NCBI GenBank assembly: GCA_023473585.1
Contig: JAMCYU010000001.1
Location: forward strand, 66,507-130,506
Direction: 5' to 3'
DNA length: 64,000 nt
Origin: Patescibacteria group bacterium
Lineage (GTDB): Bacteria; Patescibacteriota; Microgenomatia; JAMCYU01
Part shown: piece after piece, positions 9,611 through 43,368 of the stretch
Numbering within the stretch: position 1 is the first letter of the stretch
Layout of the letters: every line of letters begins with the position of its first letter
Notes under the pieces: generated by a model
What the model was told of the DNA's origin: nothing
Databases searched by the model: none
Seen by the model: only the letters and a program-made list of their open reading frames with translations
Made by a program: the position numbers and the translations under genes

Positions 9611-10705
9611 TTAGGAGACGAAATAACCACGAAAAAAAAACATTGTTATCAATATTAGCAACAAAAGACTTAAAGATAAAGAGATTATTTTTACTTTTCC
9701 TTCTAACCGACCCAAGATAATCATCAGGGGAAAATTAATCAAAAGGTAGCGCGGTAGAGAAGAAAGGGTCCCCGACAGTGTCGGTGTAAGAAGAACTAAC
9801 CAGCCGAATAAAAGATAAGATAGGGAAATTTGCTTATAATATCTTAACAATAAATAAACCGCTAGGATAAAAACCACAAATTCAAAAACGGCAATTAAAT
9901 AATCATAAGATAATTGCGCTGTCGTAAAAATCTTAAGATATCGATATAAGACTTGCGGCAATAAAATAATCTTTTCGCCGCTTCGACCCGCGCCAAACGC
10001 CGGTTGGACATGGAAAAACATTAAGGGGTCAGCGTAAGTTCGCCAAAGATAAAACATATAGAAAAGAAGTCCCATGGGGCTTATTAAAATTGCCAGGAAT
10101 TTAAGAATTGGCTTCTTTTTTTCTTTCCACCATTCATAGAAAAAAACCGGCAGCAAGAATATTCCCACCAATCTGGTAGCACTGGCTAACCCTGCCAGAA
10201 TCCCCGCCAAGAGCCATTTTTTCTTTGCCAGGTTGTAGATACTGCCTATCGTCAAAAAGAAAAATAAACTTTCCGTATAAACGCCGGCAAAGAAAAAAGA
10301 GGTCGGAAAAACCAAAAGAGAAATGATTACCCATTTGGTCACTTTTAAAGAAAACTCTTGCCCTAACAGTTTGTAGAGAATAATAAGACTCCCTAAAAAG
10401 GAAAAATGAGAAATAAGAAGAGCGCTTAAAAGATAATTACTCCCCAAAAGATTACCAAAAAATCTTATTAATAAAGGGTAGAGAGGGAAAAAGGCCTGCT
10501 CGAATTGAAAATAACCGTTTTGAGCAATGGAAAGATAGTGTTGACCATCCATATTCGCCCACCCCCAAAGTAAGGGATTTTGAAGATAATTTTCCGTTCC
10601 CCCCCCTAGAAAACCAAAACGGACAGGAATGACTAACAGACTTAAAGAGGTTATAACAATTAAAAATATTCTCCAGATGAGAAAACTGACGATAACGAAT
10701 TTCAT
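9611..10705 (-). CDS. GT-C membrane glycosyltransferase, PIG-V/GT76-like mannosyltransferase family
   Basis: Multi-TM; WANMDGQHYLSIAQNGYFQFEQAFFPLYPLL matches the conserved WDxxHFLxIAExGYxxExxxAFFP block of PIG-V-type mannosyltransferases. Confidence 0.45.
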   Translation of the reverse strand: MKFVIVSFLIWRIFLIVITSLSLLVIPVRFGFLGGGTENYLQNPLLWGWANMDGQHYLSIAQNGYFQFEQAFFPLYPLLIRFFGNLLGSNYLLSALLISHFSFLGSLIILYKLLGQEFSLKVTKWVIISLLVFPTSFFFAGVYTESLFFFLTIGSIYNLAKKKWLLAGILAGLASATRLVGIFLLPVFFYEWWKEKKKPILKFLAILISPMGLLFYMFYLWRTYADPLMFFHVQPAFGAGRSGEKIILLPQVLYRYLKIFTTAQLSYDYLIAVFEFVVFILAVYLLLRYYKQISLSYLLFGWLVLLTPTLSGTLSSLPRYLLINFPLMIILGRLEGKVKIISLSLSLLLLILITMFFFRGYFVS

Positions 10706-12357
10706 CGTTTATTTTTTAGCTTAATATCTTTATAGATAAAGGTAAGTAAAATCATCAACCCAATCAGGCTTACCAAATTTGACGTTTTTCTGATTAAAGT
10801 TTCGGTAAATTTTGCTTCAAGAGTGAGTTTGTCTTTGGGAATCGGTATCTCCATTACCCCCTCCGAAGACATAACCCTGGTTTGTTCTTTCTGATTGAGC
10901 CAAACCTGCCAGCCGGGGTAGTAAGCGATATTGAGCTTAATTAAGCTCTTTTGATTTGCCTCTCCTTCCAAGAAAAGATAATTTGAGGAAGAAATTTCTT
11001 TTTCAAGATTGATTTCTTTTTTAGAAAATTCAACCCTTTCTCTTTTGACTTTTACATACTCATGATTAAGAGTCTTGGCTCTGTATTCATCGAATTGATT
11101 GGTTGTCTGGAGGTTGTTAATATAAACTTCATCATGATTGTAGACATACTGATTAACGCGCAAATGGTTTTTATTGGTATAGAAAGCCAGAGAGATAAAA
11201 AAAATTACCACCAGCCAGACACGCTCTTTTAAGTGCTTGGCCACCAGGGCCGCGCCCAAACTGCCGCTAAAAACAGCCAAACTTAAAAATCTCCAGGGAA
11301 AATCAAAGTAACTGTATTTCGTAATTTGTTCCCAGGCCGGTTTGGAAACTGAAATCATCATGATTATGGAAAAAACAAAACAACCGACAGCAAAAAAACC
11401 CAACCAGTCGATTTTTTTCTGACGGAACCAGGTTATTAAGCTTAGAATCGCCAAAAGAATCATGGCCAGCCATTGAGCAATGCCTACCTGAAACGACATC
11501 TCGTCATTGACCGTTCCCGGAAAGTCAAAACCATAACCCCATTTTGAATAGATTAATTGCTTTAAGGTGACGAAGTGATCCAAAAAATGAGACTGTAATA
11601 TTTGTGTGGCAACCGTAAACTGTTTTTCAAAAATAGCGGGGATCAGATAATACGAAGAAAGGATTATCCCTAAAAACGACCCGGCAATTATTCCCCCAAT
11701 AAAGAGTTTGTTATTTTTGGCCTCTTTCCCTTGAAGTAAAACCCAAAAGAAGAGAGGCAAAGCAAAAATAATAAGAACCATTAAGTGAGAGAGAATTACT
11801 CCGGCTAGTCCCAAACTTACTAAAATTATTCCCTTCGTTGTTTCTCGTTTTTCCCTGACTTTCCATATCCCCCAAAACACTAAGGGTATAAATATAAAAG
11901 CTGTTGCTTCTCCCAACGAAGCTCTGACAAAAATATTGGAAAACCGGTAAGGCGCCCAAAGATAAAGGACCGAACCTAATAATCCCGGAAAAAGCCCCAG
12001 CATTTCTTTGAGCCATAAATACATGAAAATTCCAGATAATAAATAACCAATAATAAAAACTCCTTTTATGGCGTCGGTCAGTGACAATCCTACTTTCAGA
12101 AGAGGAATCCCGATAAACCATGGGGATTGATAAGAAAAAATGAAGAGCGGATAACCATAACCATTATCAGCCGTCCCGGCCCAACGAGGAGGAACCTGGC
12201 CGTCCTTTAAGGCCTGATTAAAATGATAAAGCCTGATAACCTGATGCTCGCCATCATGACTGGTATAAAAACCACTGTGAAATAAAGCTTTCACCCCGAA
12301 AAAACCAATTAAAATAACTAAAAGAAGAAAAACGTTTTTTTTTAAAATATTCATCAT
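10702..12357 (-). CDS. Polytopic membrane protein, putative GT-C glycosyltransferase (HSGF/HDGEH/PPRW/GYGYP family, copy 1 of 3)
   Basis: N-terminal FHSGFYTSHDGEHQVIRL...DGQVPPRWAGTADNGYGYPLFIFSYQSP conserved with CDS 31295-32998 and 32991-34556; 12 or more TM helices plus C-terminal soluble domain. Confidence 0.4.
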   Translation of the reverse strand: MMNILKKNVFLLLVILIGFFGVKALFHSGFYTSHDGEHQVIRLYHFNQALKDGQVPPRWAGTADNGYGYPLFIFSYQSPWFIGIPLLKVGLSLTDAIKGVFIIGYLLSGIFMYLWLKEMLGLFPGLLGSVLYLWAPYRFSNIFVRASLGEATAFIFIPLVFWGIWKVREKRETTKGIILVSLGLAGVILSHLMVLIIFALPLFFWVLLQGKEAKNNKLFIGGIIAGSFLGIILSSYYLIPAIFEKQFTVATQILQSHFLDHFVTLKQLIYSKWGYGFDFPGTVNDEMSFQVGIAQWLAMILLAILSLITWFRQKKIDWLGFFAVGCFVFSIIMMISVSKPAWEQITKYSYFDFPWRFLSLAVFSGSLGAALVAKHLKERVWLVVIFFISLAFYTNKNHLRVNQYVYNHDEVYINNLQTTNQFDEYRAKTLNHEYVKVKRERVEFSKKEINLEKEISSSNYLFLEGEANQKSLIKLNIAYYPGWQVWLNQKEQTRVMSSEGVMEIPIPKDKLTLEAKFTETLIRKTSNLVSLIGLMILLTFIYKDIKLKNKR

Positions 12358-12375
12358 CAGGTTCGTGATAAAAAT

Positions 12376-13116
12376 TTACTGACTGAAAATTTTATCTTTG
12401 CTAAAACCCCATTTATTAAGAGTGAAGCGCAAAAGAACGAAAAGTGTTTGCAGTAAAAACTTTGTCCCTTTGATAAATCTGATTGAGGAGCTTTCAGAAA
12501 AATAGCGGACAGGAACGGGAATTTCTCCGACTTTAAACCCCAGGGCAATCGCCGAAGCCATCATTTCCTGGTCAAAAACAAAATCATTGGAAAAACGCTG
12601 GTACGGCACTGTTTCTAGAACTTTTCTACTGTAAGCTCTAAAACCGCTGAAATGCTCGGAGAAATTGACGCCAAGAATAATGTTTTCGATAACGCAAAAA
12701 AACCTGTTAAGAAAATATTTGGTTAACGGCATGCCTCCCCGGAGAGTTTCTTCCCGCGTGCGAATACGAGACCCGAACATTAAGTCGTATTCACCTTGTA
12801 AAATTGGTTCAATAAGAGCTTTGGTTTTAGTTCCATCATACTGATAGTCGGGGTGAAGCATAACGATAACATCGGGATTTTTCTTTAAAGCCTCTCGATA
12901 ACAGGTTTTCTGATTTCCCCCGTAACCTAGATTTTGCGAATGGACAAAAACTTTAAGCCCTAATTTTTGAGCAATAGCTACGGTTCTATCCACGCTTTTA
13001 TCGTCAACAACGATAACCTCGCTGATTATCTCTTTCGGTAAATCCCGGTATGTCTTTTCTATGGTCTTTTCGGCATTAAACGCCGGCATGACAATAATGA
13101 CTTTAGATTTTCTCAT
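12376..13116 (-). CDS. Glycosyltransferase family 2
   Basis: VIIVMPAFNAEKTIEKT...VIVVDDKSVDRT GT2 N-terminal signature. Confidence 0.65.
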   Translation of the reverse strand: MRKSKVIIVMPAFNAEKTIEKTYRDLPKEIISEVIVVDDKSVDRTVAIAQKLGLKVFVHSQNLGYGGNQKTCYREALKKNPDVIVMLHPDYQYDGTKTKALIEPILQGEYDLMFGSRIRTREETLRGGMPLTKYFLNRFFCVIENIILGVNFSEHFSGFRAYSRKVLETVPYQRFSNDFVFDQEMMASAIALGFKVGEIPVPVRYFSESSSIRFIKGTKFLLQTLFVLLRFTLNKWGFSKDKIFSQ

Positions 13117-14943: not shown

Positions 14944-14954
14944 CTTTCTCCTTT

Positions 14955-16562: not shown

Positions 16563-18189
16563 AAACTCTTAAAATAATTTTCCCGTCTGGCAAAAAAATG
16601 TCTTTTAAGGGTTTTTTATCTTGAGGCAGATCTTGTGACGAGACGACAGAAAGAGTTTTTTTGTCTCTATCGGTTTGAAGAAGATCCAACCCTCCGAAAA
16701 CGTATTTGTCAAAACTTTTAACGTTAACAAAGCCGAAAGCATTACGTTCGACAACGGCTGTTTGCCGAAACTTAAGCGGTGAATATTTTTTATAAAAAAG
16801 AAAATAAATGTAAGGTCGGCCCAAATTATCCGTAAAGGTAATCCGCTCGTAATTTTCATACTGGCTATTTAGATAACCAATCGCTTCTTTATAACCATAC
16901 TGCCACTCGCTGGCAAACTCCTTCGGGTAATGAACATAATAATGATGGAGATACCAAAAGAAGTTTAAAACCAAAACTATTCCCAGAATGACCGCTCCCC
17001 CTTTCTTTAGAGTCTTGTTTTTACACCACAGGAAAAGTTCCAGCCAACCTATGGCGAGAATAATTTGCCAGGTAGGCAGGGTCTGCAAAATTCGCAAGGC
17101 ATGAGGTGTCTCCCGAGCCGTCGCGGCCGGAATAAGACCGACCAGCAACCAAAGAAAAATTAATTTCGCCTGTTTTGGATATTTTTTAAGCAAAAAGAAC
17201 AAACCGGCGATAAAGAAAGGCAAATCGATTAAATAAAGATGACCAACGTCTTGAATAGAAAACTTAGGATTTATATCTCCATGAAGAAATAAAAAGTTTA
17301 GATTAAGGTTATCGGTATAATGTCTTAAAAACTCTGTCGTAAACATCCATCTTCGATTGTGGAGAATTCGCGACCACCAACTGTCTTGATCTATGGCTAT
17401 CCTGGAATTGCTTAACTCTATCGGCTTAAGGTCAGAAAAAATATTCACTTCTCTGAACCTAAGATTAGCCTGAGGAGAAATAAGATGGGGAACAATAGGT
17501 AAAAGTAACAGTAAAAAGAAAATGGCAAAGAAGAGACTCTGCTTCCAAAGTTTTTTTCCTTCTTTAAAGAAGAGGAGAACTAGTCCAGCCAAAAAAATAG
17601 GCACGAAGGCCCGGGTGCTGTTAAAAGTATAAAAAGTAGCGGCAAAAGGCAACGCCGATAAAAATAAGCTTATTTTCCCCCCGTTTAAACCACGAAGAAA
17701 AAGATAGACACCTAAAACGACCAAAAAAAGGCCTAAATTGGCTTCAAAAGCAACTCTGGACATCTGCAGATGCCAGGGAGAAATGGCCATAAAGAAAGAA
17801 GTCAGTAAAGCCAGGATCTTTTTATTTTTATTTTTGAAAAACATTTCCTCAACCAAATAATATGACAAAAGTACCGTTAATGTTCCGAAGAAAGCGGAGG
17901 GAAATCTGGTAGAGAATTCGTTTAAGCCCCAAATTTTAACCGGGATGACGGCCATATAGGTATAAAGAACAGGCTTAAAGTCACCAAAAGACTCCAAATA
18001 ATCCAAAGGAAGAAATCGCCCAAATTCGTCTTTACCGGTCGTTCCCAAGCTATAAGCGTTATAACCTTGGGCAACTTCATCCCAAGACAACGCCGGCGGA
18101 ATTTCCCCAAGTTTGAAAAATCTTAGGATTCCCGCTAAGATAAGTATCAGTAAGAGTAAAATCCGGGGTGAGGTAATTATTTTTTTCAT
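16552..18189 (-). CDS. PMT/ArnT-like GT-C glycosyltransferase, tandem copy B
   Basis: LRFFKLGEIPPALSWDEVAQGYNAYSLGTTGKDEFGRFLPLDYLESF; clear paralog of 14955-16562. Confidence 0.55.
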   Translation of the reverse strand: MKKIITSPRILLLLILILAGILRFFKLGEIPPALSWDEVAQGYNAYSLGTTGKDEFGRFLPLDYLESFGDFKPVLYTYMAVIPVKIWGLNEFSTRFPSAFFGTLTVLLSYYLVEEMFFKNKNKKILALLTSFFMAISPWHLQMSRVAFEANLGLFLVVLGVYLFLRGLNGGKISLFLSALPFAATFYTFNSTRAFVPIFLAGLVLLFFKEGKKLWKQSLFFAIFFLLLLLPIVPHLISPQANLRFREVNIFSDLKPIELSNSRIAIDQDSWWSRILHNRRWMFTTEFLRHYTDNLNLNFLFLHGDINPKFSIQDVGHLYLIDLPFFIAGLFFLLKKYPKQAKLIFLWLLVGLIPAATARETPHALRILQTLPTWQIILAIGWLELFLWCKNKTLKKGGAVILGIVLVLNFFWYLHHYYVHYPKEFASEWQYGYKEAIGYLNSQYENYERITFTDNLGRPYIYFLFYKKYSPLKFRQTAVVERNAFGFVNVKSFDKYVFGGLDLLQTDRDKKTLSVVSSQDLPQDKKPLKDIFLPDGKIILRVYEN

Positions 18190-19754: not shown

Positions 19755-20637
19755 ATAATTTTACTGTTTTTAATCGGTGAACAAGAATCGTCGGCAATTT
19801 TCCTATCGCCATCATAAAACCTAACCAAAAAGGCAAATCCAAAGAGATAATTCTTCTTATGAGGTGATACGACAACCAAAGAAAATGGCTTCTTAGCAAA
19901 TCATAATCTGTAATATTTTTCCAAATAAAGATGAACTGATTACGGTAGGATATGGTTTTTATATAAAATTGGCTGAATTTTTGTTTGATAATTCCCTCTT
20001 CATGTCGGTGGATTACCTGGCTTAAAGGCTCGAAAATAATTTTATAACCAGACTTTCGAGCCCGGTAGGAAAGATCAATATCTTCCCAATAAAAGGGGTT
20101 ATATAAAGAATCAAGTCCGCCGAGTTTTTCCCATAAGTCTTTTCTAAAAGCGCCGCTGCCGCAGGATACCCAAAAGGTCTCTGTTTTATTTACTTCCCCT
20201 CTTTTATGAATAAGAAACCCATGGTGCCATTTGGCTAGTCCCCGGCCTCTTTGAATTTCTTTCTCTCCCTCAATACTTATGTCCAAACAGCCAACGGCAA
20301 AAACTTGTAAGTCAGTGAAGTGTTGAACCAGCGGCCTAAGGAAGTCGGCTTTAGGCGTAACGTCGGTATTTAGCAAAACCACAATCTCGCCGATTGCTTC
20401 TTTAACTCCTCTATTAATCGTTGAAGAAAAACCAAGGTTCTTTTTATTTTCTATAATTTTGACTTTTGAACTGTAATTTTGCTTTTGAATAAACTCCCGG
20501 AGGATTGAGCTTTGAAACTGTTCCGAACCATCATCAACAACGATGACTTCGGAAGCTCCCGTTTCTAAAATTAAAGGCAAGTTTTTAACTAAATCGTCAG
20601 TTCGGTTGTAATTAGGAATGATAATGGAAACTTTCAT
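19717..20637 (-). CDS. Glycosyltransferase family 2
   Basis: MKVSIIIPNYNRTDDL...EVIVVDDGSEQ; LLNTDV DxD-like. Confidence 0.65.
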   Translation of the reverse strand: MKVSIIIPNYNRTDDLVKNLPLILETGASEVIVVDDGSEQFQSSILREFIQKQNYSSKVKIIENKKNLGFSSTINRGVKEAIGEIVVLLNTDVTPKADFLRPLVQHFTDLQVFAVGCLDISIEGEKEIQRGRGLAKWHHGFLIHKRGEVNKTETFWVSCGSGAFRKDLWEKLGGLDSLYNPFYWEDIDLSYRARKSGYKIIFEPLSQVIHRHEEGIIKQKFSQFYIKTISYRNQFIFIWKNITDYDLLRSHFLWLSYHLIRRIISLDLPFWLGFMMAIGKLPTILVHRLKTVKLFVKKDKELFLDD

Positions 20638-22931
20638 AAGAAACTCATGCTAAATTCGATCTCGTGCTTCCCTCGGGGAACGAAAACTCCGCGGAAAGCG
20701 TAATTAGTACGATAAATTTTCGTTTCCAAACTATCGATGGTGGCTTTCCAGGCCGGATAATACGGATCCATTAAAACCAAAAAACCGTCTTCTGTATTTT
20801 GTGTTTTGATAATTATCTTATTTTCAGAGTATTCCTTTATTTCTGCTTGACAATTATTGCAATTCGACTTTAAATCCGAATCGTTAGTTTCGATTCTCTC
20901 CAGGGAAACTATTTTTTTCCGATTAAAATCCTGGGTAAAGATTGACTCAATGGCCTCCTGTTTATTACCAGCCACCTTAATACCATCGGCAAAAAACGTT
21001 CTCGGCAAAACATCGGCATTTTCATAAACTCTTGTTTGGCCTTCTTGAAAGACTAATTTAAGTTTTGGTGATTTTTCCTCCTTAAGGCTCAAAATATATT
21101 TTACATTAAGTAAATCGGTTAGCTTCGAGTCGTAATCCTGGGGGGTTAATATCCGATTAAAGGACAAAGGTTTAATATCGGCCCTCCCTCGATACCAGGC
21201 GCTGGTAAACTCTCCGTAATCACGAAGATATAAAGGATCGTAACCAGCCACGTCTTCTAGTTTGTAAAAGGTCGCAAAATTTGGGGGGAAAATTCTTCTG
21301 TCGGTAGTCATAAAGCGAAAAGGTTTAGGTTGATTTTTTAAAAATTTAATTGTTTCCGTTTGGGGAAAAAGCCATTCTTTATCGGTAAAAGGCGTAAATT
21401 TCCAGCCAAACCGGAAAAGATCTAAAATCGTCAAGATTAAAATCCCCCCATAAAAGAAATTCCGAACGGGAAAAGAATTGTTTAGTTTCTCTAGACGATA
21501 TTTTAGTCCGTGATAGACACCAACAAGACAAAGAAAAATTAAGAAAGTCAATGATGGGAAAATTAAATTTCGTTTCGCAATTAATAAATTTTCCAAACTC
21601 AGTGCTTTAAACCAGGTGGGGCCGGTTAAAACAAAAAGCCATAAGCTAAAAAGAAGAAGGCCCAAAAAAACAAGAACCGCTCCGGCTTTTTTCCTGTGCT
21701 TTAAATTTTTTATCAAAAAATCTAACCCTAAACCGGCCAAAACAGACAAGGAGAAGTCAGTCATAAATAAAAGTCTCGTCGGCTGGCTGGTTGACATTAA
21801 CGGCAGGCGCCACTGATACGGCAATTTAGCCAAAAAAGTCGGCAGGGCAAAAATTAAGGAAAGAAATGTTATTCCGCCAAAAAATAACGTTTTTTTATCA
21901 CGACGCCAAAGAATGGCCAAAAGAGCAAAAAACAGAGGAACAACGCCGATATAACTCACAAACTCTCCATAATTCCACTCTCCCCAGTAATTTAGGGTCG
22001 CCGGATTACCGAAAAAATCCGGAACCAGAAGCTGGATGAGATTTTGCCAGGGAATAAACCACCCCGGTTGCTGCCAATCAATCTGATCAAGATTGCGGGC
22101 GCTTTGACTTATAAATTGTAAAGTAGGAAACCATTGAATAACCGTTATTAAAGAAAAAAACAAAAAACAAAAAGAAAAAAGCAAGAACATTTTTTTTGAT
22201 CTTCCGTTTTGCCACCATCTAAAGATTAGGTAAAGTAATGAAAAAATGATAACGTAAAAAAAGACCTGTAAATGACCGGCAAAAAACGAAGAAATCAGGC
22301 TTAAAAATAAAAGACCGCTCCAAATCACAAGATTTTTGTTTCTTGACTGAAAAATTTTATCTATCGAAAGTAAAATTAGAGGTAACCACAATCCCGTGTG
22401 AATAATTGTATTCCATTCCAACCAGGCAATTGAAAATCCGGAGAAAGAAAAGACAATAGCCCCTAAAAAACTTGCCCACTTATCTATTTTTAAATTTCGT
22501 AAATATTGATATAAAAAAAGGCCGGCTAAAAAAGGCTGAAGCATGACCATTATTGCCCAACCAAGATTAAAAGGAAAAATTAAGAAGAGAATATTCAGAG
22601 GATAAAAGACGGCGCTTTGAAAATTAGCCAAAAGTGGCATTCCGGAAAAATTATACGGATTCCACAATGGAAGATGATTATTTTTCAATTGATCAAAAGA
22701 CAAGGATCGCCAAACATATTGCTGACGAACAGGGTCGGTTACTAAAAAATTCTTAAAGGGAATACCGCTGGGATAATCCTTAAGATAATAATCTCGCCAA
22801 GGATGATACAGACCAACAATCGTATCGGCCGGAAGGGGTAATTTATTCTCAAAGATAACCGGCTTAAAAAAGAAAAGAGAAAGAATAAGAAAAAAAACAA
22901 TCGGGAAAATTTTAACTAAAAATAATTTCAT
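20634..22931 (-). CDS. YfhO-like large polytopic membrane protein (GT-C-like), copy 1
   Basis: N-terminal GLYHPWRDYY...PLWNPYNFSGMPLLANFQSAVFYPLN pattern shared with CDS 34525-36921; 765 aa, many TM helices plus C-terminal domain. Confidence 0.4.
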   Translation of the reverse strand: MKLFLVKIFPIVFFLILSLFFFKPVIFENKLPLPADTIVGLYHPWRDYYLKDYPSGIPFKNFLVTDPVRQQYVWRSLSFDQLKNNHLPLWNPYNFSGMPLLANFQSAVFYPLNILFLIFPFNLGWAIMVMLQPFLAGLFLYQYLRNLKIDKWASFLGAIVFSFSGFSIAWLEWNTIIHTGLWLPLILLSIDKIFQSRNKNLVIWSGLLFLSLISSFFAGHLQVFFYVIIFSLLYLIFRWWQNGRSKKMFLLFSFCFLFFSLITVIQWFPTLQFISQSARNLDQIDWQQPGWFIPWQNLIQLLVPDFFGNPATLNYWGEWNYGEFVSYIGVVPLFFALLAILWRRDKKTLFFGGITFLSLIFALPTFLAKLPYQWRLPLMSTSQPTRLLFMTDFSLSVLAGLGLDFLIKNLKHRKKAGAVLVFLGLLLFSLWLFVLTGPTWFKALSLENLLIAKRNLIFPSLTFLIFLCLVGVYHGLKYRLEKLNNSFPVRNFFYGGILILTILDLFRFGWKFTPFTDKEWLFPQTETIKFLKNQPKPFRFMTTDRRIFPPNFATFYKLEDVAGYDPLYLRDYGEFTSAWYRGRADIKPLSFNRILTPQDYDSKLTDLLNVKYILSLKEEKSPKLKLVFQEGQTRVYENADVLPRTFFADGIKVAGNKQEAIESIFTQDFNRKKIVSLERIETNDSDLKSNCNNCQAEIKEYSENKIIIKTQNTEDGFLVLMDPYYPAWKATIDSLETKIYRTNYAFRGVFVPRGKHEIEFSMSFL

Positions 22932-23967: not shown

Positions 23968-24706
23968 TTTGCCTTTCCCAAAGACGAACGTAGGTAATAA
24001 AAATACTGAATGACTGATAAAGGCTTTCAATAAGACCGACGGTCCCGAGTTTCCATCCTCCTTGTCCCAGGTAATATTTAAGGAATTCTGTTAACATCAT
24101 CCGGGGAAATCTCCACCAGGTCATTTTGGGATGACCAGCTTTAAACCGTAAGTCTGCTTCTACTTTCGACCACTCGATGGTTTTTTTAAGCATTGAGGAA
24201 AGATCACGATGGGTATAATGATTTAAATAACCCTTTAATTCCCCAATTTTACCGCTGATTATCGGACTTTCGTGGAGTTCTCCATACCAACCTTTCAGTT
24301 GATCTTTTTTAAAAAATCGTTCAAGTTCTTCGATCTTTGGCCATTCGTGATCACCCAAATAAAAGTTTTTTCTCTTAACCCTGTAGGCCACAAAATTATT
24401 ATTGGTGTTTTCCGTTTGATCTTTTATGCTTGACGCTAATTCCGGTGTCACCCTTTCGTCTGCATCCAGATATAAAACCCAACGACAAGAAGCTTTAATC
24501 ATGGCAAAATTACGCTGACCGGCGAAATCTTTAAAAGGATTAAGAAAAACTTGGGCGCCTGTTTTTTTGGCAATTTCTCCGGTTTTATCCGAAGACTCCG
24601 CATCCACAACGATTATTTCGCCCGCCAACTGACGGGTAGATTCAATGCAGGCAAAAATATTTTTCTCTTCGTTTTTTGTCAGTATCAGAATAGAAATTCT
24701 ATTCAT
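23948..24706 (-). CDS. Glycosyltransferase family 2 (paralog of 14164-14943, 28220-29134)
   Basis: NRISILILTKNEEKNIFACIESTRQLAGEIIVVDAESSDKTGEIAKKTGAQV. Confidence 0.6.
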   Translation of the reverse strand: MNRISILILTKNEEKNIFACIESTRQLAGEIIVVDAESSDKTGEIAKKTGAQVFLNPFKDFAGQRNFAMIKASCRWVLYLDADERVTPELASSIKDQTENTNNNFVAYRVKRKNFYLGDHEWPKIEELERFFKKDQLKGWYGELHESPIISGKIGELKGYLNHYTHRDLSSMLKKTIEWSKVEADLRFKAGHPKMTWWRFPRMMLTEFLKYYLGQGGWKLGTVGLIESLYQSFSIFITYVRLWERQNEDRNF

Positions 24707-27553: not shown

Positions 27554-27577
27554 TTTGGCAAAAACTAAACTTTTGTC

Positions 27578-28216
27578 TTATTCGTAAATAATTCTAATCC
27601 GGGCATTATCAAGAAAAACTTCGTAGCCTAAACTGGAATAAAGCTGAACTCGGTAAAGTCTATTTCCTAAAGCAAAAGAAATCTTTTCTGACCTTACCAT
27701 ATTTCCGGCTTGACCCTCTACCCAAACCTCGCTGTTCCAAACAGGATGATCGTCGTTAACGTTATAAAGTCTGGCGTAAGCTCTCCCGTTAGCGGTCGGA
27801 ATACGCAAAGCTGCCTCAAAGTTTGCTTCTTTGATCTTGGTATATTTAGAAGTGTCAATATATGTTTCTATTCCGCCGATGTTTACCCAAGAAGTGTTTT
27901 TTGTCGAACCGCTGCCTAGGGGAATAAAAATTTCTTTTGTGGCCACAGCCTTATTTTGAGCTTCTTTTTCCGCCGTTGGCAATTTAATTGAGGCCGTGGC
28001 CGTTTCAATCGCTTGCAAACAAGCCGGTGAACAATTCATTATTTCTTCGTTTATTATGGCTGAGGGGGTCGGGGTAACCGGGGACTCCGTCACCGTTTCT
28101 GTTTTTTCTTCTGGCTCTTTGGTTAAAAACAACTTTATGTCAAGAATAATAAGATTAAAGGCCAGTAAAAAAAGAAGAAGGAATATCCCCATGGTTATAA
28201 TTTTAGTTTTATTCAT
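27578..28216 (-). CDS. Membrane-anchored secreted protein with Pro/Thr linker, function unknown
   Basis: N-terminal TM (IITMGIFLLLFLLAFNLIIL), PEEKTETVTESPVTPTPS linker, soluble C-terminal domain. Confidence 0.3.
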   Translation of the reverse strand: MNKTKIITMGIFLLLFLLAFNLIILDIKLFLTKEPEEKTETVTESPVTPTPSAIINEEIMNCSPACLQAIETATASIKLPTAEKEAQNKAVATKEIFIPLGSGSTKNTSWVNIGGIETYIDTSKYTKIKEANFEAALRIPTANGRAYARLYNVNDDHPVWNSEVWVEGQAGNMVRSEKISFALGNRLYRVQLYSSLGYEVFLDNARIRIIYE

Positions 28217-28219
28217 AAA

Positions 28220-29134
28220 TTAAAGGCTAAGTTTCCTTTTAATTTTTAACACTAATTTTTTAAAAGGATTTTTTGTTTCCTCAAGGTAACTTTCGCTAAA
28301 CCAATAATTTAAATCTTTTTTTGTCTTGGCAAATTCGCCCTCCACCTTTTTTAAAAAGTCTTCTTCTTTCGGTTCCCAAAATCCTTGTTTCTCCCAAATC
28401 TTAGCAAAGACTATTTCTGCATAAAAAGCCTGTAAAAGGCTCAAAACTAGTCCATGTAAGCCGTCTTTGTAGCCCTTTTGGGCAAAAAAGGTTTTTAAAA
28501 AATCTTCAACGGGCCACGTTATGGCGTCCGTCCATTTTAATTTTTTCCCACTTCGTAAAAAAACATCGGTTTCGTTTTCGGTATAAATTTTATCGAGTTT
28601 ATAAAGAAATTGAGAAACAGAAACGTAATTTAGGTGTGTCAGCGGATTTTTCAAATGACCCGTTGAACCGTTAACCTCAAGAGCTTCATGAATATGCTTT
28701 TCGGGAAATCTGCCCCTGCCCTTACGAAAGAGCCGTAGCTGCTCATCCGGCGACCAAAGAGAATGCTGAATCCATTTTCCAAAAATAATATTTTTCCGGG
28801 GAATCCAATAACCGTCGACGCTTGATGCTTGATCCTTAACACTTGCTGCTATTTCATCTCTTAATTCCGGAGTAACGCGTTCGTCGGCGTCCAAATTAAG
28901 AAGCCAGTCTCCGCTGGCCTTCTCAAAGCCAAAATTTTTATTAATATTGAGCATTAAATTATTCGGTTGGGTATAAATTTTTGCTCCATACGCCTGACCA
29001 ATTTCCTGTGTTTTATCCGTGGAGTTATTGTCAATTAAGATAATCTCATCTCCTAATTGTCTTACGGATTCAAGACAATCCTTGATGTTTTTTTCCTCGT
29101 TATAGGCAGAAATTACGACCGAAAGTTTTGCCAT
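28220..29134 (-). CDS. Glycosyltransferase family 2 (paralog of 14164-14943, 23948-24706)
   Basis: MAKLSVVISAYNEEKNIKDCLESVRQLGDEIILIDNNSTDKTQEIGQAYGAKI. Confidence 0.6.
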   Translation of the reverse strand: MAKLSVVISAYNEEKNIKDCLESVRQLGDEIILIDNNSTDKTQEIGQAYGAKIYTQPNNLMLNINKNFGFEKASGDWLLNLDADERVTPELRDEIAASVKDQASSVDGYWIPRKNIIFGKWIQHSLWSPDEQLRLFRKGRGRFPEKHIHEALEVNGSTGHLKNPLTHLNYVSVSQFLYKLDKIYTENETDVFLRSGKKLKWTDAITWPVEDFLKTFFAQKGYKDGLHGLVLSLLQAFYAEIVFAKIWEKQGFWEPKEEDFLKKVEGEFAKTKKDLNYWFSESYLEETKNPFKKLVLKIKRKLSL

Positions 29135-30564
29135 AAAGTTTTCGCCTCCTCAAAAATTCTCCCTTTGGTCAAAATATAAACCGAAACTAAATAAATTATA
29201 CTCCCCATCAAAAGAACAAAGATTAACCAGGTCATTTTGGTCGTTAAAGCCAATGTCAGATAAAAAAAGACGGCTAAGATCATTGAGGCAACCAAAGATG
29301 GCATAATATTGGCAACCAGATGAAAACGAACAAAGCGTTTGACCATAAGAACCGGAATAACGACGGTTAAACCGATCATGGCCGAAGAAACGGCCACCCC
29401 ATTAAAGCCTAACTTAAAAACCAAAAACGGCCCTAAAAGCCAAGTCAGAACAGTCCAAACAATCATCAGATAAAGGGTTATTTTTATTTTGCCGATCGCA
29501 TTTAAAACATTGGTTAAGGGCGTGGAGAGGCCGGCAAAAATGCTGGCAATAACGAAAAGGTAAAAAGAGAAAAGTGCCGGTTCCCACTTAAGGTACTTCG
29601 GGATGAAAAAGACGAGCGGTTTGATGGCAAAAACAAAAGCCACGCTTAACGGTAGAATCAAAAACGAAAGAAAAAAGATTGATTTATCCAAGGCTTTACC
29701 TAAATACTCGGGTTTTTCCTGAAGTCTGGCGTAGGCGGGGAAAGTAACCTTAATGACATTGTCCATAACAAGCCTTAAAGGAAATTCGGCCCATTTTTTC
29801 GCCCAGCCGATATAACCTATCTGATTAAAAGGCAAAACTTTCCCTAAAAAAATCGTAAAAAGATCATCCTTAATCAGGGCTAAAATTGAGTTTGCCTGAA
29901 AAGGTAAACCGAAAGATAATAGCCTTTTGGCTACCGTTTTGGAAAAACCGATACCTATTTTCCAGGGAGAAAGAACATAAATGGCTGCTAGACCAATAAC
30001 GCCCCTTGCCAAAACCGCCCAGGTAAAAGAGGTCAGACCAAAACCCTTAACGGCCAAAACAACCACGATGAGGCTAAAGGCGTTGGTTTCGAGAATCTGC
30101 GGGATAACCAATTTATTAAAAGCTAATTTCCGCTCGAGAAGAATGGAAGGAATGGTTTTTAAGGAAGACAAAAAGAAAGAGACTACCAGTGCCCGAAAAA
30201 GCCAAAGACCAGCCGTGTCTAAATTATAAAAACTTGAAAGCTGCCTTGAAAGGAGTAAGGCTATAATCACGATTGCTCCCACTAAGACCTGTTGAATGGT
30301 AAAGGTCGTTTTTAAGTCGTCCTCTGTAACCGCTTCTCTTTTTTGAATTAAGGCTGCCGCCAGACCAATATCAGAAAAATAACCCAGAAAGGAAATGACG
30401 GCGGAAACGACAAAAAAGACACCAAAAACCGAAGGCGCCAAGAAAATGGTTAAGAGAAAGGTCGTAAGAAAAGAAATTATCTGTAGAAGAAAAGTCCTTG
30501 AGGTTAAAGCCAAAACACCGCCTACAGCCCGTTTTTTCACCTCTTCAAGACCAATTTCATCCAT
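29113..30564 (-). CDS. Wzx/MOP-family polysaccharide flippase
   Basis: 483 aa, 12 or more TM; N-terminal RAVGGVLALTSRTFLLQIISFLTTFLLTIFLAPSVFGVF typical of polysaccharide biosynthesis protein family. Confidence 0.55.
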   Translation of the reverse strand: MDEIGLEEVKKRAVGGVLALTSRTFLLQIISFLTTFLLTIFLAPSVFGVFFVVSAVISFLGYFSDIGLAAALIQKREAVTEDDLKTTFTIQQVLVGAIVIIALLLSRQLSSFYNLDTAGLWLFRALVVSFFLSSLKTIPSILLERKLAFNKLVIPQILETNAFSLIVVVLAVKGFGLTSFTWAVLARGVIGLAAIYVLSPWKIGIGFSKTVAKRLLSFGLPFQANSILALIKDDLFTIFLGKVLPFNQIGYIGWAKKWAEFPLRLVMDNVIKVTFPAYARLQEKPEYLGKALDKSIFFLSFLILPLSVAFVFAIKPLVFFIPKYLKWEPALFSFYLFVIASIFAGLSTPLTNVLNAIGKIKITLYLMIVWTVLTWLLGPFLVFKLGFNGVAVSSAMIGLTVVIPVLMVKRFVRFHLVANIMPSLVASMILAVFFYLTLALTTKMTWLIFVLLMGSIIYLVSVYILTKGRIFEEAKTLWQNFRS

Positions 30565-30588
30565 AGTCTAAATTATACCAAAGTAGCC

Positions 30589-31311
30589 TTACTTTCTCCA
30601 AGGACGACTAAAGAAGAGACGAAGAAGACCTTTTAGATCTCCAGAGACTGTTTTGAGGACACGGACGGTTGAACCGGGATTATCGGTCCAAATTACCGGC
30701 TCTTCATAAAGCTTGTAACCGGATTTTTCTCCGGTAATTAAAAGCTCGCTGTCGAAAAACCACTCGTTATCTATTATTTTGGGCAAAAGTTCGCTTACGA
30801 CTCGTCTATTAACAGCCTTAAATCCGCATTGGGCGTCTGAAAAACTGATCTGGAAAAGAAGTTTGACGATGAGATTGTAGCTTCTTGAAAGAATTTCTCT
30901 TTTAAGAGTTCTGCCGCTAACCCTTGATTTCGGCAAGAGCCTTGAACCCAAAGCGATATCAAAACCATTCTCAAGGGCCTTGATGATCGCCGGCAGATGA
31001 CCTAAATTGGTTGAAAGATCTATGTCCATATAACAATAATAATCAGCCCTATAAGATGCCCAGGCTTTTTTAAGAGCCAAACCTCGGCCTTTTTCTTCAA
31101 GACGCAAAAAACTTATTCTTGGGTATTTTTGTCCTAAATTCTTACCGATCTCTCGTGTTTTATCTGTCGAGGCATTATCAACAATCATAATCTGGAAGTT
31201 TTTTTCACCTAACGGCGCGATAAAATCCTTAATTTTTAAGACATTTTTTTCCAGTTCTTGTTCTTCGTTATAAACCGGCAAAGCGATCAATATTTTAGGA
31301 CCGTTTTTCAT
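30589..31311 (-). CDS. GT2, polyprenyl-phosphate sugar synthase-like (DPM1/GtrB-like)
   Basis: ILIALPVYNEEQELEKNVLKIKDF...QIMIVDNASTDKT...YMDIDLS. Confidence 0.6.
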   Translation of the reverse strand: MKNGPKILIALPVYNEEQELEKNVLKIKDFIAPLGEKNFQIMIVDNASTDKTREIGKNLGQKYPRISFLRLEEKGRGLALKKAWASYRADYYCYMDIDLSTNLGHLPAIIKALENGFDIALGSRLLPKSRVSGRTLKREILSRSYNLIVKLLFQISFSDAQCGFKAVNRRVVSELLPKIIDNEWFFDSELLITGEKSGYKLYEEPVIWTDNPGSTVRVLKTVSGDLKGLLRLFFSRPWRK

Positions 31312-32998
31312 GTTTAGGCAAAAATAATAGCATAATCAGGCTAAAAAAACTAATTACCGACGCAAAATTACCCAAGGTCCTTAATGGTGTATCGTTAAAG
31401 ACGACCTCAACCAAATGACTCCCTTTGGGAACAGCGACGGTTATCAATTTAAATTTATTGTTGTCGTCAATTTTGGTTTTTTGACCGTCGATTTTAACCT
31501 CCCAGCCGGGAAAATTATAGGTGTTAACCGTTAATTTCCCTCCTTCGCCAAAGACTTCATATTTTTTCTCATGAGGTAAAATTTGTTTTTCTTTAACCTG
31601 AAGCCTACCATCCGAAACAAAAGAATTTATCGGTATTTCTTCCCTTTTAATATCAACTTGAGTCGTTTGAATATCCGAAAGCACGGTCGCAATTCCCTTT
31701 GGGACATATTCAAACGACATTTTGCTTACCCGCCAATTTAACTCTTCTTTTGTCGTGTAGTCTTTATCCGTAACTTCAAGATAACGGGCCGGCCGAAAAT
31801 AATCCCTATTAAGGAGGACAACAAAGGCAATCAAGAAAGCTAACATTAACCATTTGGTAAAAGGCTGACGAATTTTAGAGACGTAACTTGCCAAACCGCC
31901 CGCCAAAAGAGAGGAAAAAAGAGCGGTAAAAACTAAAAACCGCCAGGGAAATTGAACATACCAAAGCGGCTGCAGCTTATCCCAAATGAATTGGGAGTAA
32001 AAACTCGCCATGAATAAAGAAAACATAAAACATAAAACATAAAACATAAAAACTTGCCACTCTTTTCTCTTTTTCAAAAAAAGATATAAACCGAAAACGC
32101 CTCCCAAGAAACTTAAAAGCAGGTGCAATTTGCCCACCTCAAAGGAGATCCCGTCGTTTAGTCCGTAAATTGACCCTCCATAACCCCAGGGAGAACTTAT
32201 AAACTGACGTAAATAAACAAAGTGAAGTTTATAAGATGCCAACTCTCCGGTTAAAATCTGATCAACCAGAGTATATTGCCGTTCAAGAAGGGCCGGCAAC
32301 CAAAAGTAAGCGCTTAAGCCTAAAAATAGCATGAAGGAACAAAGAAAAGACAGGATAATTTTTTTCTTATCCTTCTTTGGTAAAACTAAAAAGCCGGCAA
32401 AGGCAAAATAAAATGGCAAAAAGATTAAAGCTATCAGATTGTGGCTTAGAAGCAGTAATGACAAAAAACAACTATTGATAACTAGCCAATTTCTGTTTCT
32501 TTCTTTAATTAATTTGAAGGTCGACCATAAAACCGCCGGTAAGAAAACAAAAGCGTAAAATTCTGCCAAGGCTCCCCGAACATAGAGATCAAGCGAATGA
32601 TACGGCGCATAAAGATAAAAAACCGCCGTAACCAAGCCGCCGCTTTTGCCAAAGAATTCTTTAGCCAGAAGATAACTGAAAAGTCCCGATAAAAGAAACC
32701 CCAGTCCCATCACTATCTTTGTGGAGTCAATTAAAGAAATTCCCAGAAGATGGAAAATCTCTCCAAAGTAATAAACAAAGGGCGGATAAAAATTGAAAAA
32801 AGGATAACCAAAACCAAAGCCTAATCCGTCAATCCACCTTGGTGGAAATTGACCGGCGGAAAGGGTTTGGTTCAGCTCAAAAAGTCTGGCAATCTGTTCA
32901 TCGTCATGCATGGGGAAAAATCCCGAATGAAAAAGAGGGAAAACGGCCCAAAAGCTTAAAAACAAAAGAAGAAAAAACGGCAATAATTTTTTAAACAT
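31295..32998 (-). CDS. Polytopic membrane protein, putative GT-C (HSGF/HDxEQ/PPRW/GYGYP family, copy 2)
   Basis: FHSGFFPMHDDEQIARL...GQFPPRWIDGLGFGFGYPFFNFYPP; paralog of 10702-12357. Confidence 0.4.
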   Translation of the reverse strand: MFKKLLPFFLLLFLSFWAVFPLFHSGFFPMHDDEQIARLFELNQTLSAGQFPPRWIDGLGFGFGYPFFNFYPPFVYYFGEIFHLLGISLIDSTKIVMGLGFLLSGLFSYLLAKEFFGKSGGLVTAVFYLYAPYHSLDLYVRGALAEFYAFVFLPAVLWSTFKLIKERNRNWLVINSCFLSLLLLSHNLIALIFLPFYFAFAGFLVLPKKDKKKIILSFLCSFMLFLGLSAYFWLPALLERQYTLVDQILTGELASYKLHFVYLRQFISSPWGYGGSIYGLNDGISFEVGKLHLLLSFLGGVFGLYLFLKKRKEWQVFMFYVLCFMFSLFMASFYSQFIWDKLQPLWYVQFPWRFLVFTALFSSLLAGGLASYVSKIRQPFTKWLMLAFLIAFVVLLNRDYFRPARYLEVTDKDYTTKEELNWRVSKMSFEYVPKGIATVLSDIQTTQVDIKREEIPINSFVSDGRLQVKEKQILPHEKKYEVFGEGGKLTVNTYNFPGWEVKIDGQKTKIDDNNKFKLITVAVPKGSHLVEVVFNDTPLRTLGNFASVISFFSLIMLLFLPKHEKRS

Positions 32999-34556
32999 CT
33001 TTTAATTTCCTCCTGAAGAGCAAACCCAAAATTAAACCTGTAAAGGTGACGAAACTTAAAATATCGCTTAACTTCCGCAGGGTCGTTTCTTCCCATAAAA
33101 CTTCAATTTTATGTTTACCCTGGGGAACTGATAGAAAAATCAGCCCGCCTTCATTCTCAAAAAAAATTGCGGTCTTAACTTCGTCGATTTCAGCCAGCCA
33201 GCCGGGGAAATAAACGAGATTAACTTTGATTGTTGTTTCTGTCTGGTTTTCTGTCGTAAAAATAATTCTTCGCGAATTTTGCAAAATCAGGTTTATTTGG
33301 CCTTGACCAGAAACTAATTCGATCTTTTTTCCCGGATGATTAGCGGGAAAATTTTTTACCCATCGCGGGGTGTATTCTCTTTTTACCGTCGTCGTGTCTT
33401 CATTAGTCGTATAAAACTCTTCTGTTCTTAGCTCATATTTTATTTGGTTAAGACGCGGCCATGAGGAAAGAAAAAAGACAACAAGGATTAAAATTCCGAC
33501 ACTCAATTTAGTTTTCGAAGACAGAGTATTAAGCGAAAAAGCGGTTAAAAAACTTAAACAAATGATCGCTAAAGAAAGAAAACGCCAGGGAAACTGAACC
33601 AGTTTGGGTAGCGGTATAACCTGCCAAACAACGCTAGATAGCGGCATGGCCAAAAAAATAGAAAGAAGAAAAATTATTAAAAATAATAAAGCTTTTTTGT
33701 CTCTTTTCTTTAAAAGAATTAATAAAGAACCTGAAGCCAAAATAAGACTCTCCCAACCCAAAAGAGAGAAATTTTTGCTGTTTAGGAAAAAGTTTTGCCA
33801 TTGGGAAACCGTTACCTGACTAAAAATGGTGTCTTGTTGATCCCAAAGGGCCGGTACCCAGAAAAAAGCGGAAAGAAGAAAGGCAAGAAGAAAGGAAAGT
33901 ATCAGACCGGAGGTCTTAAACATTTTTCCCAAAAAACCGTAGAGAAAAATTACCGGTAAAAAAATCAGAGCCAGGGTGTTGTGCGAGGTAATTAAGATTG
34001 CGGTAAAAAGGGCGGTCAAAAAAATATTTTTCTTTTCCACCAACCAGAAAATTAACGGTAAAATGGCCAAAGCTACCGCCTCGCCCAACGAACCTCTGGT
34101 ATAAATGTCGAAAAGATGATAAGGAGCGTAAAGATAAACAAAACTGCCAACCAAAGCCGGCCAAGAAGGAAACAATTTCCTAAGCCAAAGATAACAAAAG
34201 ATACCCGAGAAAATGAGACTTAGACCAAAGAGTATTTTAATCGACAAAATAAAATTAAATCCCAAAAGATGGATCATTTCTCCCAAATAAAGAGCTCCGG
34301 GGTAAAGAAAATTGAAAACAGGGTAACCATACCCGAAGTTTAAACGGCCGGCCCAGCGAACCGGAAATTGGCCATCACGAAGACTACGGTGAAAATCAGA
34401 CAGCCTAACAATCATCCAACCGCCGTCATCACTCACAAACATCCCTGGCCGAAAAAGTGGTAAAAGCAAAGGAACAGTCAAAACAAAAAGAAGCAAAAAC
34501 GGCCAAAGGTGAGTTTTGTTTTTTTTAAGATAAGTTTTTATTTTTTCCATAGACAT
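32991..34556 (-). CDS. Polytopic membrane protein, putative GT-C (same family, copy 3)
   Basis: FRPGMFVSDDGGWMIVRL...DGQFPVRWAGRLNFGYGYPVFNFLYPG; tandem with copy 2. Confidence 0.4.
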   Translation of the reverse strand: MSMEKIKTYLKKNKTHLWPFLLLFVLTVPLLLPLFRPGMFVSDDGGWMIVRLSDFHRSLRDGQFPVRWAGRLNFGYGYPVFNFLYPGALYLGEMIHLLGFNFILSIKILFGLSLIFSGIFCYLWLRKLFPSWPALVGSFVYLYAPYHLFDIYTRGSLGEAVALAILPLIFWLVEKKNIFLTALFTAILITSHNTLALIFLPVIFLYGFLGKMFKTSGLILSFLLAFLLSAFFWVPALWDQQDTIFSQVTVSQWQNFFLNSKNFSLLGWESLILASGSLLILLKKRDKKALLFLIIFLLSIFLAMPLSSVVWQVIPLPKLVQFPWRFLSLAIICLSFLTAFSLNTLSSKTKLSVGILILVVFFLSSWPRLNQIKYELRTEEFYTTNEDTTTVKREYTPRWVKNFPANHPGKKIELVSGQGQINLILQNSRRIIFTTENQTETTIKVNLVYFPGWLAEIDEVKTAIFFENEGGLIFLSVPQGKHKIEVLWEETTLRKLSDILSFVTFTGLILGLLFRRKLKDV

Positions 34557-43171: not shown

Positions 43172-43178
43172 AAATTTA

Positions 43179-43314: not shown

Positions 43315-43323
43315 AATCTTAAT

Positions 43324-43350: not shown

Positions 43351-43368
43351 GAGTGTAAGTCAGAATTT

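Follow-up and report, generated by a model that had tools for sequence, protein, structure and literature searches.

What is the role of three related polytopic membrane proteins encoded in one surface-glycan gene cluster of a Patescibacteria group bacterium? We examined this question in a stretch of 64,000 nucleotides (positions 66,507 to 130,506 of the forward strand of contig JAMCYU010000001.1, NCBI GenBank assembly GCA_023473585.1), which is referred to as the window and in whose numbering all positions are given. A first-pass annotation made from the sequence had described three paralogous coding sequences with a shared N-terminal signature. All three were recovered at exactly the same coordinates, and all were found on the minus strand, which the first-pass annotation had not recorded. 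They are named A, B and C:

10702..12357 (-), paralog A, 551 aa, predicted PF10131/YfhO-like GT-C membrane glycosyltransferase
31295..32998 (-), paralog B, 567 aa, predicted PF10131/YfhO-like GT-C membrane glycosyltransferase
32991..34556 (-), paralog C, 521 aa, predicted PF10131/YfhO-like GT-C protein with the variant first-loop motif SDDGGW

An all-against-all BLASTP comparison of the open reading frames (ORFs) of the window confirmed the paralogy, with near full-length matches far beyond chance between A and B (32% identity, E 1e-75 to 1e-79), A and C (30%, E 1e-59 to 1e-67) and B and C (31%, E 1e-61 to 1e-71). The B and C genes overlap by 8 bp, and A lies 18.9 kb downstream of B/C within the same co-directional array. 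NCBI places the start of A at the second Met, giving 550 aa. The GenBank entry that is 100% identical to A is titled 'YfhO family protein [Patescibacteria group bacterium]', and the entry that is 100% identical to B is titled 'MAG: 6-pyruvoyl-tetrahydropterin synthase-related protein [Patescibacteria group bacterium]' (MAG, metagenome-assembled genome). Taking together the motifs, profiles, predicted folds and gene neighbourhoods described below, we conclude that A, B and C are probably three anciently diverged paralogs in one large family of integral-membrane glycosyltransferases of the GT-C fold, lying between PF10131 and YfhO.

Conserved motif block in the first loop

The strings quoted in the first-pass annotation were present in all three proteins and aligned with one another in a three-way alignment. 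They read FHSGF..SHDGEH..QVPPRW..GYGYP in A, FHSGF..MHDDEQ..QFPPRW..GFGYP in B and FRPGM..SDDGGW..QFPVRW..GYGYP in C, and are located as follows:

12136..12285 (-), first-loop signature of A, residues 25-74, LFHSGFYTSHDGEH...GQVPPRW...GYGYPLFIF, with Asp35
32789..32935 (-), first-loop signature of B, residues 22-70, LFHSGFFPMHDDEQIARL...GQFPPRW...GFGFGYPFFNF, with the putative catalytic Asp32
34308..34457 (-), first-loop signature of C (variant), residues 34-83, LFRPGMFVSDDGGW...GQFPVRW...GYGYPVFNF, with Asp44

Conservation was counted in 154 non-identical sequences pooled from the A, B and C orthogroups and is given in B numbering. The densest run of near-invariant residues was the N-terminal block itself (G26, D32, R38, P52, R54, G62, G64, Y65, P66 and F70), with D32 conserved at 99% and each of D32, R38, P52, R54, G62, G64, Y65 and P66 at 94% or more. 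Other near-invariant positions were K94, Y128, P132, Y133, R141, E146, P154, H186, P235 and G289 from the N-terminal side to mid-protein, and W339, P351-W352-R353, Y414, E430, P433, P497-G498-W499, G526 and T537 on the C-terminal side. The positions conserved at 90% or more included D32, R38, R54, R141, E146, H186, R353 and P497-G498-W499. The DxD-like acidic motif of GT-C loop 1 was found here as [HD]-D-[GD]-x directly after the first transmembrane helix. The consensus of the C orthogroup was S-[DH]-D-G-E-W; the Asp is therefore retained in C-type proteins.

Profile-profile alignments (hhalign) were built from the orthologs in 80 related loci. In these, the invariant Asp of H-D-[GD]-E aligned with the conserved P-x-P-S-D of YfhO and fell near the D-W-D-E of the PMT_2 proteins of the window, in agreement with the earlier remark that the acidic motif resembles GT-C catalytic loops. 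G-Q-F-P-P-R-W aligned with the YfhO motif G-E-L-P-L-W-N-P, and G-Y-G-Y-P with F-S-G-Y-P. The loop-1 Asp may thus be the catalytic residue, as judged from these alignments. One gain of the analysis is that a family signature is now defined in the first, predicted extracytoplasmic loop.

Family placement and distribution

The Pfam gathering scores were 26.4 bits for PF10131, 28.5 bits for PF09586 (YfhO) and 26.1 bits for PMT_2. A, B and C scored 43.9, 38.9 and 52.6 bits against PF10131, all above the gathering score, so the tentative assignment to this family stood. The motif block was not part of it: the block lies upstream of the model match, which begins at residue 68 of B. The match was also not full length, covering profile positions 30-343 (A), 1-334 (B) and 10-316 (C) of 621 and leaving the C-terminal half unmatched. 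With the match starting behind the motif block and confined to positions 1-343 of the 621 in the profile, A, B and C count as partial members of PF10131, and what is best conserved in them lies outside the Pfam model. PF10131 belongs to Pfam clan CL0111 (GT-C) and is of unknown function (PMC7801869); our literature search found it only as a GT-C clan member of this kind.

PMT_2 was passed marginally, and by B only (27.5 versus 26.1 bits). Against PF09586, A reached 38.0 bits, most strongly in its C-terminal domain (positions 759-828 of the 835 in the YfhO profile), and B and C gave no match at E <=0.1. In profile-profile alignment, A, B and C matched the YfhO proteins of the window at 98.9-99.6% (E 1e-17 to 4e-24) from the first to the last core transmembrane helix, and PMT_2 at 94-98% from the first to about the seventh helix. 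The nearest family is therefore YfhO, and not PMT or ArnT.

NCBIfam gave no match for A, B or C. Pfam at E <=0.1 gave no catalytic domain of 6-pyruvoyl-tetrahydropterin synthase (PTPS) and no transporter family in any of the three, and the name 'PTPS' is a historical misnomer here. A pterin synthase identity was ruled out, no such domain being found in the Pfam scan. Pfam labels on the orthologs varied: many carried a precomputed PF10131, and many carried none, PMT_2 or YfhO. Their database names were PTPS-related, YfhO, GT39 or hypothetical. The labelling of orthologs with no family, PMT_2 or YfhO shows that the annotation of the family is inconsistent. The relationship to YfhO is a further gain of the analysis.

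A profile search of 1.84 billion cluster representatives returned 25,355 matches at E <=1e-3 and 6,830 at E <=1e-30, and the family comprises about 25,000 clusters at 50% identity, mostly from Microgenomates. The nearest named relatives were in Candidatus Gottesmanbacteria (63%), followed by Levy-, Curtiss-, Roizman- and Chisholmbacteria, all of them Microgenomates. The literature search found nothing on a GT-C expansion in Gottesmanbacteria or Microgenomates. Many genome records with loci of Microgenomates type (40-61% identity, with the gene order shared) bear titles such as 'uncultured Gammaproteobacteria', 'Nevskiaceae', 'Acidiferrales' or 'Bathyarchaeia'; these titles look like placeholder or wrong MAG labels rather than real horizontal spread. 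Some representatives of the family are 1,093-3,329 aa long, with 2-5 separate profile matches, which points either to tandem paralogs joined in gene calling or to true fusions of several GT-C units.

Architecture and predicted fold

Hydropathy and the secondary structure of AlphaFold2 models showed the same order of elements in the three proteins. A basic N-terminus, predicted to be cytoplasmic, and the first transmembrane helix are followed by the motif loop of about 45 residues, with one amphipathic helix, and by about 10-12 more transmembrane helices up to about residue 400. After this core, hydropathy and the models of A and B showed a beta-sandwich of about 135 residues and then a last transmembrane helix with a basic tail. 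The proteins therefore carry about 11-13 core helices and one at the C-terminus, and a count of about 8-13 is expected of GT-C proteins. The earlier description, 12 or more transmembrane helices and a C-terminal soluble domain, was right about the soluble domain and roughly right overall, but a firm 12 or more was not obtained and the terminal anchor had been missed. The first loop is probably extracytoplasmic, as judged from the basic termini and from homology, and the topology of all three proteins is predicted accordingly. If the loop and the beta-sandwich both lie outside, as in homologs, the number of core helices would be odd, 11 or 13.

31322..31798 (-), C-terminal module of B, about residues 401-559, a beta-sandwich (about 401-537, from DSSP of the model) with P-G-W followed by a transmembrane anchor, common to YfhO

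A beta-sandwich with Y-[YF]-P-G-W is common to A, B, C and the two YfhO proteins of the window, and BLASTP matched the C-terminal domains of the two groups at E 1e-5 to 1e-8. The YfhO arrangement of a C-terminal extracytoplasmic domain and then a terminal transmembrane helix was thus found in A, B and C as well.

AlphaFold2 models were made of A (58 sequences, mean predicted local distance difference test, pLDDT, 93.9; predicted template modelling score, pTM, 0.93) and of B (62-sequence alignment, pLDDT 91.3, pTM 0.91). The structural comparison with GT-C folds that the first-pass annotation had recommended came out in favour of that fold, and GT-C enzymes were the only confident Foldseek matches of both models in the PDB. 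The matches were to STT3/AglB/PglB, ArnT, AftA/AftB/AftD, EmbB, Pmt4, Pmt1-2, DPY19, ALG3/ALG12 and PimE, with template modelling scores (TM-scores) of 0.40-0.46 and a probability of 1.00, and the top 27 matches of the B model were all GT-C. Sugar transporters and transporters of the major facilitator superfamily reached a TM-score of about 0.1 and a probability of <=0.23, so neither the models nor the profiles place the proteins in a transporter family.

Gene cluster and conserved partners

The three genes lie in a run of 30 co-directional genes from 43171 down to 6463, with a largest gap of 49 bp. A further block at 43995-52553 is located upstream, across an 823-bp gap with one plus-strand ORF. 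That A, B and C form one operon, as first annotated, is plausible. A promoter and terminator scan of 28-46 kb gave counts close to those of shuffled sequence (40 versus 38.7 and 25 versus 23.4) and therefore holds no information on operon structure. The gap at 43172-43994 (823 bp) is the only sizeable one in the array, and its lone plus-strand ORF (43369-43815) encodes 148 aa. The best sigma-70-like match of the scanned region (43286-43314, 11/12) precedes this ORF. Its product may be a small regulator, with the cluster divided into two transcription units at this point.

The genes that adjoin A, B and C, together with the further membrane proteins of the cluster, are as follows:

29113..30564 (-), Wzx-type (MOP) flippase, Polysacc_synt_3 at 1e-45, NCBIfam MOP flippase / O-glycosylation flippase
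30589..31311 (-), soluble glycosyltransferase of family 2 (GT2), 240 aa, Pfam Glycos_transf_2, directly downstream of B
12376..13116 (-), soluble GT2 resembling dolichol-phosphate mannose synthase (DPMS-like), 246 aa, directly upstream of A
8341..9597 (-), second Wzx-like flippase, Polysacc_synt / Polysacc_synt_3, two genes downstream of A
45504..46631 (-), GT2 carrying a fused GtrA/DPMS transmembrane domain, read as a polyprenyl-phosphate sugar synthase with a flippase-type domain
34525..36921 (-), YfhO-family GT-C protein, 798 aa, directly upstream of C, PF09586 at 126 bits, hhalign to A/B/C 99.0-99.6%
20634..22931 (-), second YfhO-family GT-C protein, 765 aa, PF09586 at 106 bits, 34% identical to 34525-36921
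38425-39516 (-), 363-aa polytopic protein, no Pfam match, PMT_2 profiles 97.7%
39513-40694 (-), 393-aa polytopic protein, no Pfam match, ortholog carrying PF26314 MptA_B
18186-19754 (-), 522-aa polytopic protein, no Pfam match, weak GT-C similarity (about 80%), possible further GT-C protein

The best solved relatives of the 240-aa GT2 were the Dol-P-Man synthase of P. furiosus (5mlz, E 8e-19) and then ArnC and GtrB. It has no transmembrane segment, and on this likeness it is a probable polyprenyl-phosphate sugar synthase, the donor-making partner. The 246-aa GT2, also with no transmembrane segment, had Dol-P-Man synthase 5mlz as its sole solved relative (E 4e-6). Two modules, each of a GT2, a family member and a Wzx-type gene, are thus visible, one around B/C and one around A. 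The cluster also encodes RmlA/B/D-like and other nucleotide-sugar enzymes, a UDP-glucose dehydrogenase, an ABC-2 exporter pair, about 12 GT2 and 2 GT4 proteins, and the two Wzx-type flippases. At least 12 GT-C proteins were counted in about 37 kb: A, B and C, two YfhO, four PMT_2, one PIG-V-like, the one with an MptA_B ortholog and the 363-aa protein.

We measured the conservation of this arrangement in 80 related genome loci with a B ortholog. Wzx was the most conserved neighbour, within two genes of the B ortholog in 77 loci and adjacent to it in 45. A DPMS-like GT2 was within the same distance in 49 loci, either as the soluble 240-aa type downstream or as the GT2-GtrA type upstream, the latter lying directly upstream of B in at least 14 loci. 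A second family member was within two genes in 37 loci, and a conserved run of cytoplasmic GT2/GT4 genes follows Wzx. Orthologs of C were found directly upstream of B in about 22 loci, with a margin of more than 100 bits over other paralogs. The orthologs of A are distinct, and the order PMT_2-PMT_2-GT2-GT2(246)-A-PIG-V also occurs in a Gottesmanbacteria MAG; the B/C-centred gene order of the window is conserved in Gottesmanbacteria too. The first-pass annotation had read distinct specificities out of the three copies, and the separately conserved orthogroups of A, B and C in other Microgenomates point the same way. The conserved partners (Wzx and the DPMS-like GT2) are concrete handles for biochemistry on the family and for correcting its misleading "pterin synthase-related" name.

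Proposed pathway and alternative explanations

In multi-component transmembrane glycosylation, a C55-P-sugar is first made by a GT-A enzyme, then carried outward by a flippase of GtrA or Wzx type, and finally used by a GT-C enzyme with a DxD-like loop to decorate a wall polymer; a variant with a soluble GT-A enzyme, a Wzx-type flippase and a GT-C enzyme has been proposed for the rhamnose polysaccharide of S. pyogenes (PMC8035078). The window holds the same set, with adjoining GT2s of polyprenyl-phosphate sugar synthase type, Wzx-type genes and a fused GtrA domain. On the basis of this arrangement we assign A, B and C, with reasonable though limited confidence, as outer-face transferases using polyprenyl-phosphate sugars. 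The adjoining soluble DPMS/ArnC/GacI-like GT2 would transfer a sugar from its nucleotide-sugar donor to polyprenyl phosphate on the inner side of the membrane, and a Wzx-type or GtrA-type flippase would move the lipid-linked sugar outward. The GT-C protein would then pass it, by means of the loop-1 Asp, to a growing cell-envelope glycan or a surface protein, with the beta-sandwich domain probably aiding acceptor binding. A, B and C would carry out different transfer steps, differing in donor, acceptor or both, in one large rhamnose-associated surface-glycan pathway with at least 12 GT-C proteins; the donor type, like the acceptor, is deduced from these parallels.

Several observations weigh against this assignment. 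No characterised member of the A/B/C family was found; the archaeal Dol-P-Man mannosyltransferase AglS might be a characterised relative and is given no weight as evidence here. The fold matches are distant (TM-score 0.40-0.46, 10-16% identity), and no credible sequence match was obtained in the PDB with a profile of the three paralogs or with the 62-sequence profile. The YfhO pair of the window likewise had no credible PDB relative by sequence, so that no solved structure appears to exist for either family. Where Asp32 lies with respect to the membrane and the conserved Arg residues is predicted from sequence order and homology, and the C protein of the window has Gly after D-G where its orthologs mostly have Glu or Asn. 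A DPMS-like GT2 occurs near B in only 49 of the 80 loci and Wzx in 77, and the Wzx link may have another meaning. The top Foldseek matches, moreover, are oligosaccharyltransferases, enzymes that use pyrophosphate-linked oligosaccharides.

B, and perhaps C, could instead transfer en bloc, or polymerise, a Wzx-flipped polyprenyl-pyrophosphate oligosaccharide, with protein, peptidoglycan or another glycan as acceptor, and so substitute for an oligosaccharyltransferase, ligase or polymerase rather than act as a single-sugar decorating enzyme. The nearly universal Wzx beside B fits this scheme, the conserved run of cytoplasmic GT2/GT4 genes could build the lipid-linked repeat unit, STT3/AglB/PglB were the best Foldseek matches of both models, and no Wzy, WaaL or LCP family protein was detected in the window with Pfam. 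However, no WWDYG-type motif was found in A, B or C (searched as WW[DE] and W[WF]D[YFW]G), and they are thus not members of the oligosaccharyltransferase family GT66. The TM-scores to oligosaccharyltransferases (0.37-0.46) did not exceed the scores reached with AftD, with ALG12 or, for A, with ArnT, all of which use monophosphate donors. The nearest family by sequence is YfhO (99%), whose characterised members use monosaccharides linked to undecaprenyl phosphate (Und-P), and DPMS-like GT2s are often direct neighbours. A Wzx-type flippase has also been proposed for an Und-P-monosaccharide in the S. pyogenes Gac system (PMC8035078), and other polytopic proteins of the cluster (24703-26655 and 18186-19754) could be the polymerase. 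We therefore consider transfer of flipped oligosaccharides unlikely. Bolder still, and quite doubtful in our judgement, is the idea that B-type proteins form an unrecognised oligosaccharyltransferase or ligase family acting on Wzx-flipped oligosaccharides, and that, more broadly, an ultra-small cell uses at least 12 GT-C proteins to build a complex surface heteroglycan largely outside the membrane, as in mycobacterial arabinogalactan and lipoarabinomannan.

The assignment as outer-face transferases could also hold with a different acceptor alone, A, B and C then O-glycosylating Ser/Thr/Pro-rich linkers of surface proteins in the manner of PgfM1/PgtC2 and PMT. YfhO-type GT-C enzymes modify Ser/Thr-rich disordered regions, including those of sortase-anchored adhesins (PMC12041528). 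The cluster is directly downstream of a sortase gene and a gene for a 2318-aa SdrD_B/SpaA/DUF11 protein, and T/P- or S/T/P-rich linkers occur in that protein, in a CAP-domain protein (52693-53664) and in a 212-aa protein (27578-28216). The adjacency to the sortase locus may be coincidental, though, and the giant protein has no 40-residue window with 40% Ser+Thr, so that it lends little support to protein acceptors. A polysaccharide is indicated instead by the genes for rhamnose and nucleotide sugars, by the ABC-2 exporter and by the presence of more than 12 cytoplasmic glycosyltransferases, and we regard protein acceptors as rather improbable. That the three are non-enzymes (transporters or scaffolds) or belong to pterin metabolism is hardly credible. 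Such a role is suggested by the Pfam name '6-pyruvoyl-tetrahydropterin synthase related' and by the variant motif in C, but neither a PTPS nor a transporter family was matched in Pfam at E <=0.1, and the acidic and basic residues of GT-C active-site type are 90-100% conserved in the 154 sequences, C orthologs included. A transporter identity was ruled out on the fold, given the TM-scores near 0.1 reported above.

Orphan membrane family and flanking genes

The gene at 24703-26655 (-) encodes a 650-aa polytopic membrane protein and shares the conserved synteny. It had 67 homologs among 5.8 billion proteins, all hypothetical and all from Microgenomates lineages; no Pfam match was found in 32 members of this family, and no PDB relative. 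Fusion proteins of about 1,130 aa with PF12979 also occur among the homologs. Judging from its profile-profile alignment with the B family (94.5%, E 8e-8), the protein may be a highly diverged GT-C member, and it could be the polymerase of the pathway.

Directly upstream of the glycan cluster, at 55976-63527 (-), are the sortase gene and then the gene for the 2318-aa protein, which contains four SdrD_B, three SpaA and DUF11 domains, an N-terminal transmembrane segment or signal and a C-terminal transmembrane segment with a basic tail. The protein is probably a giant adhesin anchored to the wall, and the linker mentioned above is N-terminal and T/P-rich. The 212-aa protein (27578-28216, minus strand) had no Pfam match. 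Its N-terminal transmembrane segment is joined to a globular C-terminal region by a linker rich in T/S/P/E (EEKTETVTESPVTPTPS), and it may serve as an acceptor or accessory protein.

A plus-strand gene at 4681-6462 encodes 593 aa with about 9-11 hydrophobic segments (residues 60-426) and then tetratricopeptide repeats (TPRs), an architecture that recalls TMTC-type or TPR-bearing membrane glycosyltransferases. Its membrane part had no match among the 25 Pfam families listed and no hhalign link to the GT-C groups of the window. The truncated first ORF (8-535, plus strand) shares 31% identity (E 9e-23) with the C-terminal region of 38425-39516, which means that the membrane proteins of the cluster have further paralogs outside the window. 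Bordering the glycan cluster, 3099-4598 (-) encodes a B12-binding radical SAM enzyme that may modify a sugar or lipid. The ORFs 49834-50907 and 50702-51715 (-) overlap by 206 bp; the Pfam match of the RmlD-like ORF starts only at residue 71, and its TTG start was therefore probably called too far upstream.

Comparison with known systems

Patescibacteria have tiny genomes and are thought to be epibionts. About 45 kb of this genome is given to one surface-glycan pathway, with at least 12 GT-C proteins, about 14 cytoplasmic glycosyltransferases, two Wzx proteins and an ABC exporter, and the surface glycan is therefore probably central to how the cell presents itself to hosts and phages. A, B and C themselves add members to a known, already annotated and uncharacterised GT-C family and establish no new principle. 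The main interest is contextual and lies in the density of GT-C genes in a reduced genome, the pairing of B with Wzx and the orphan family of 24703-26655.

Compared with STT3/AglB/PglB (GT66), A, B and C share the GT-C core with a C-terminal extracytoplasmic domain, and these enzymes gave the best Foldseek matches (E 4e-6 to 1e-3, TM-score 0.37-0.46). They differ in the missing WWDYG, the low identity and the terminal transmembrane anchor after the soluble domain. With the PMT_2/ArnT-type enzymes (GT39/GT83; GacL, GtlB and CsdB type) they share the acidic loop-1 motif, and ArnT matched the A model at TM-scores of 0.40/0.41. A soluble GT2, Wzx and a GT-C protein are also the set proposed for GacI/J/K/L of S. 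pyogenes. The C-terminal domain of A, B and C is, however, unlike that of PMT_2 proteins, of which the window has four separate true members. From PF10131 they differ in their C-terminal half, which is YfhO-like instead.

The YfhO family includes YfhO of B. subtilis and S. aureus (a GlcNAc transferase for lipoteichoic acid), YfhO of L. monocytogenes (wall teichoic acid) and the streptococcal PgtC2 and PgfM1. A, B and C are about 200-250 residues shorter; YfhO has a loop-1 insert of about 35 residues and a much larger extracytoplasmic region. The usual partner flippase of A, B and C is of Wzx type and not GtcA type. Und-P-sugars serve YfhO-type enzymes as donors, and the acceptors are teichoic acids or Ser/Thr-rich regions of proteins (PMC12041528). 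The first-loop Asp, G-x-x-P-x-W/R and G-Y-P of A, B and C stand at positions equivalent to those of YfhO, the C-terminal beta-sandwich and transmembrane anchor are the same, and the genes have flippases and polyprenyl-phosphate sugar synthases of GT-A type as neighbours, like those of the characterised systems.

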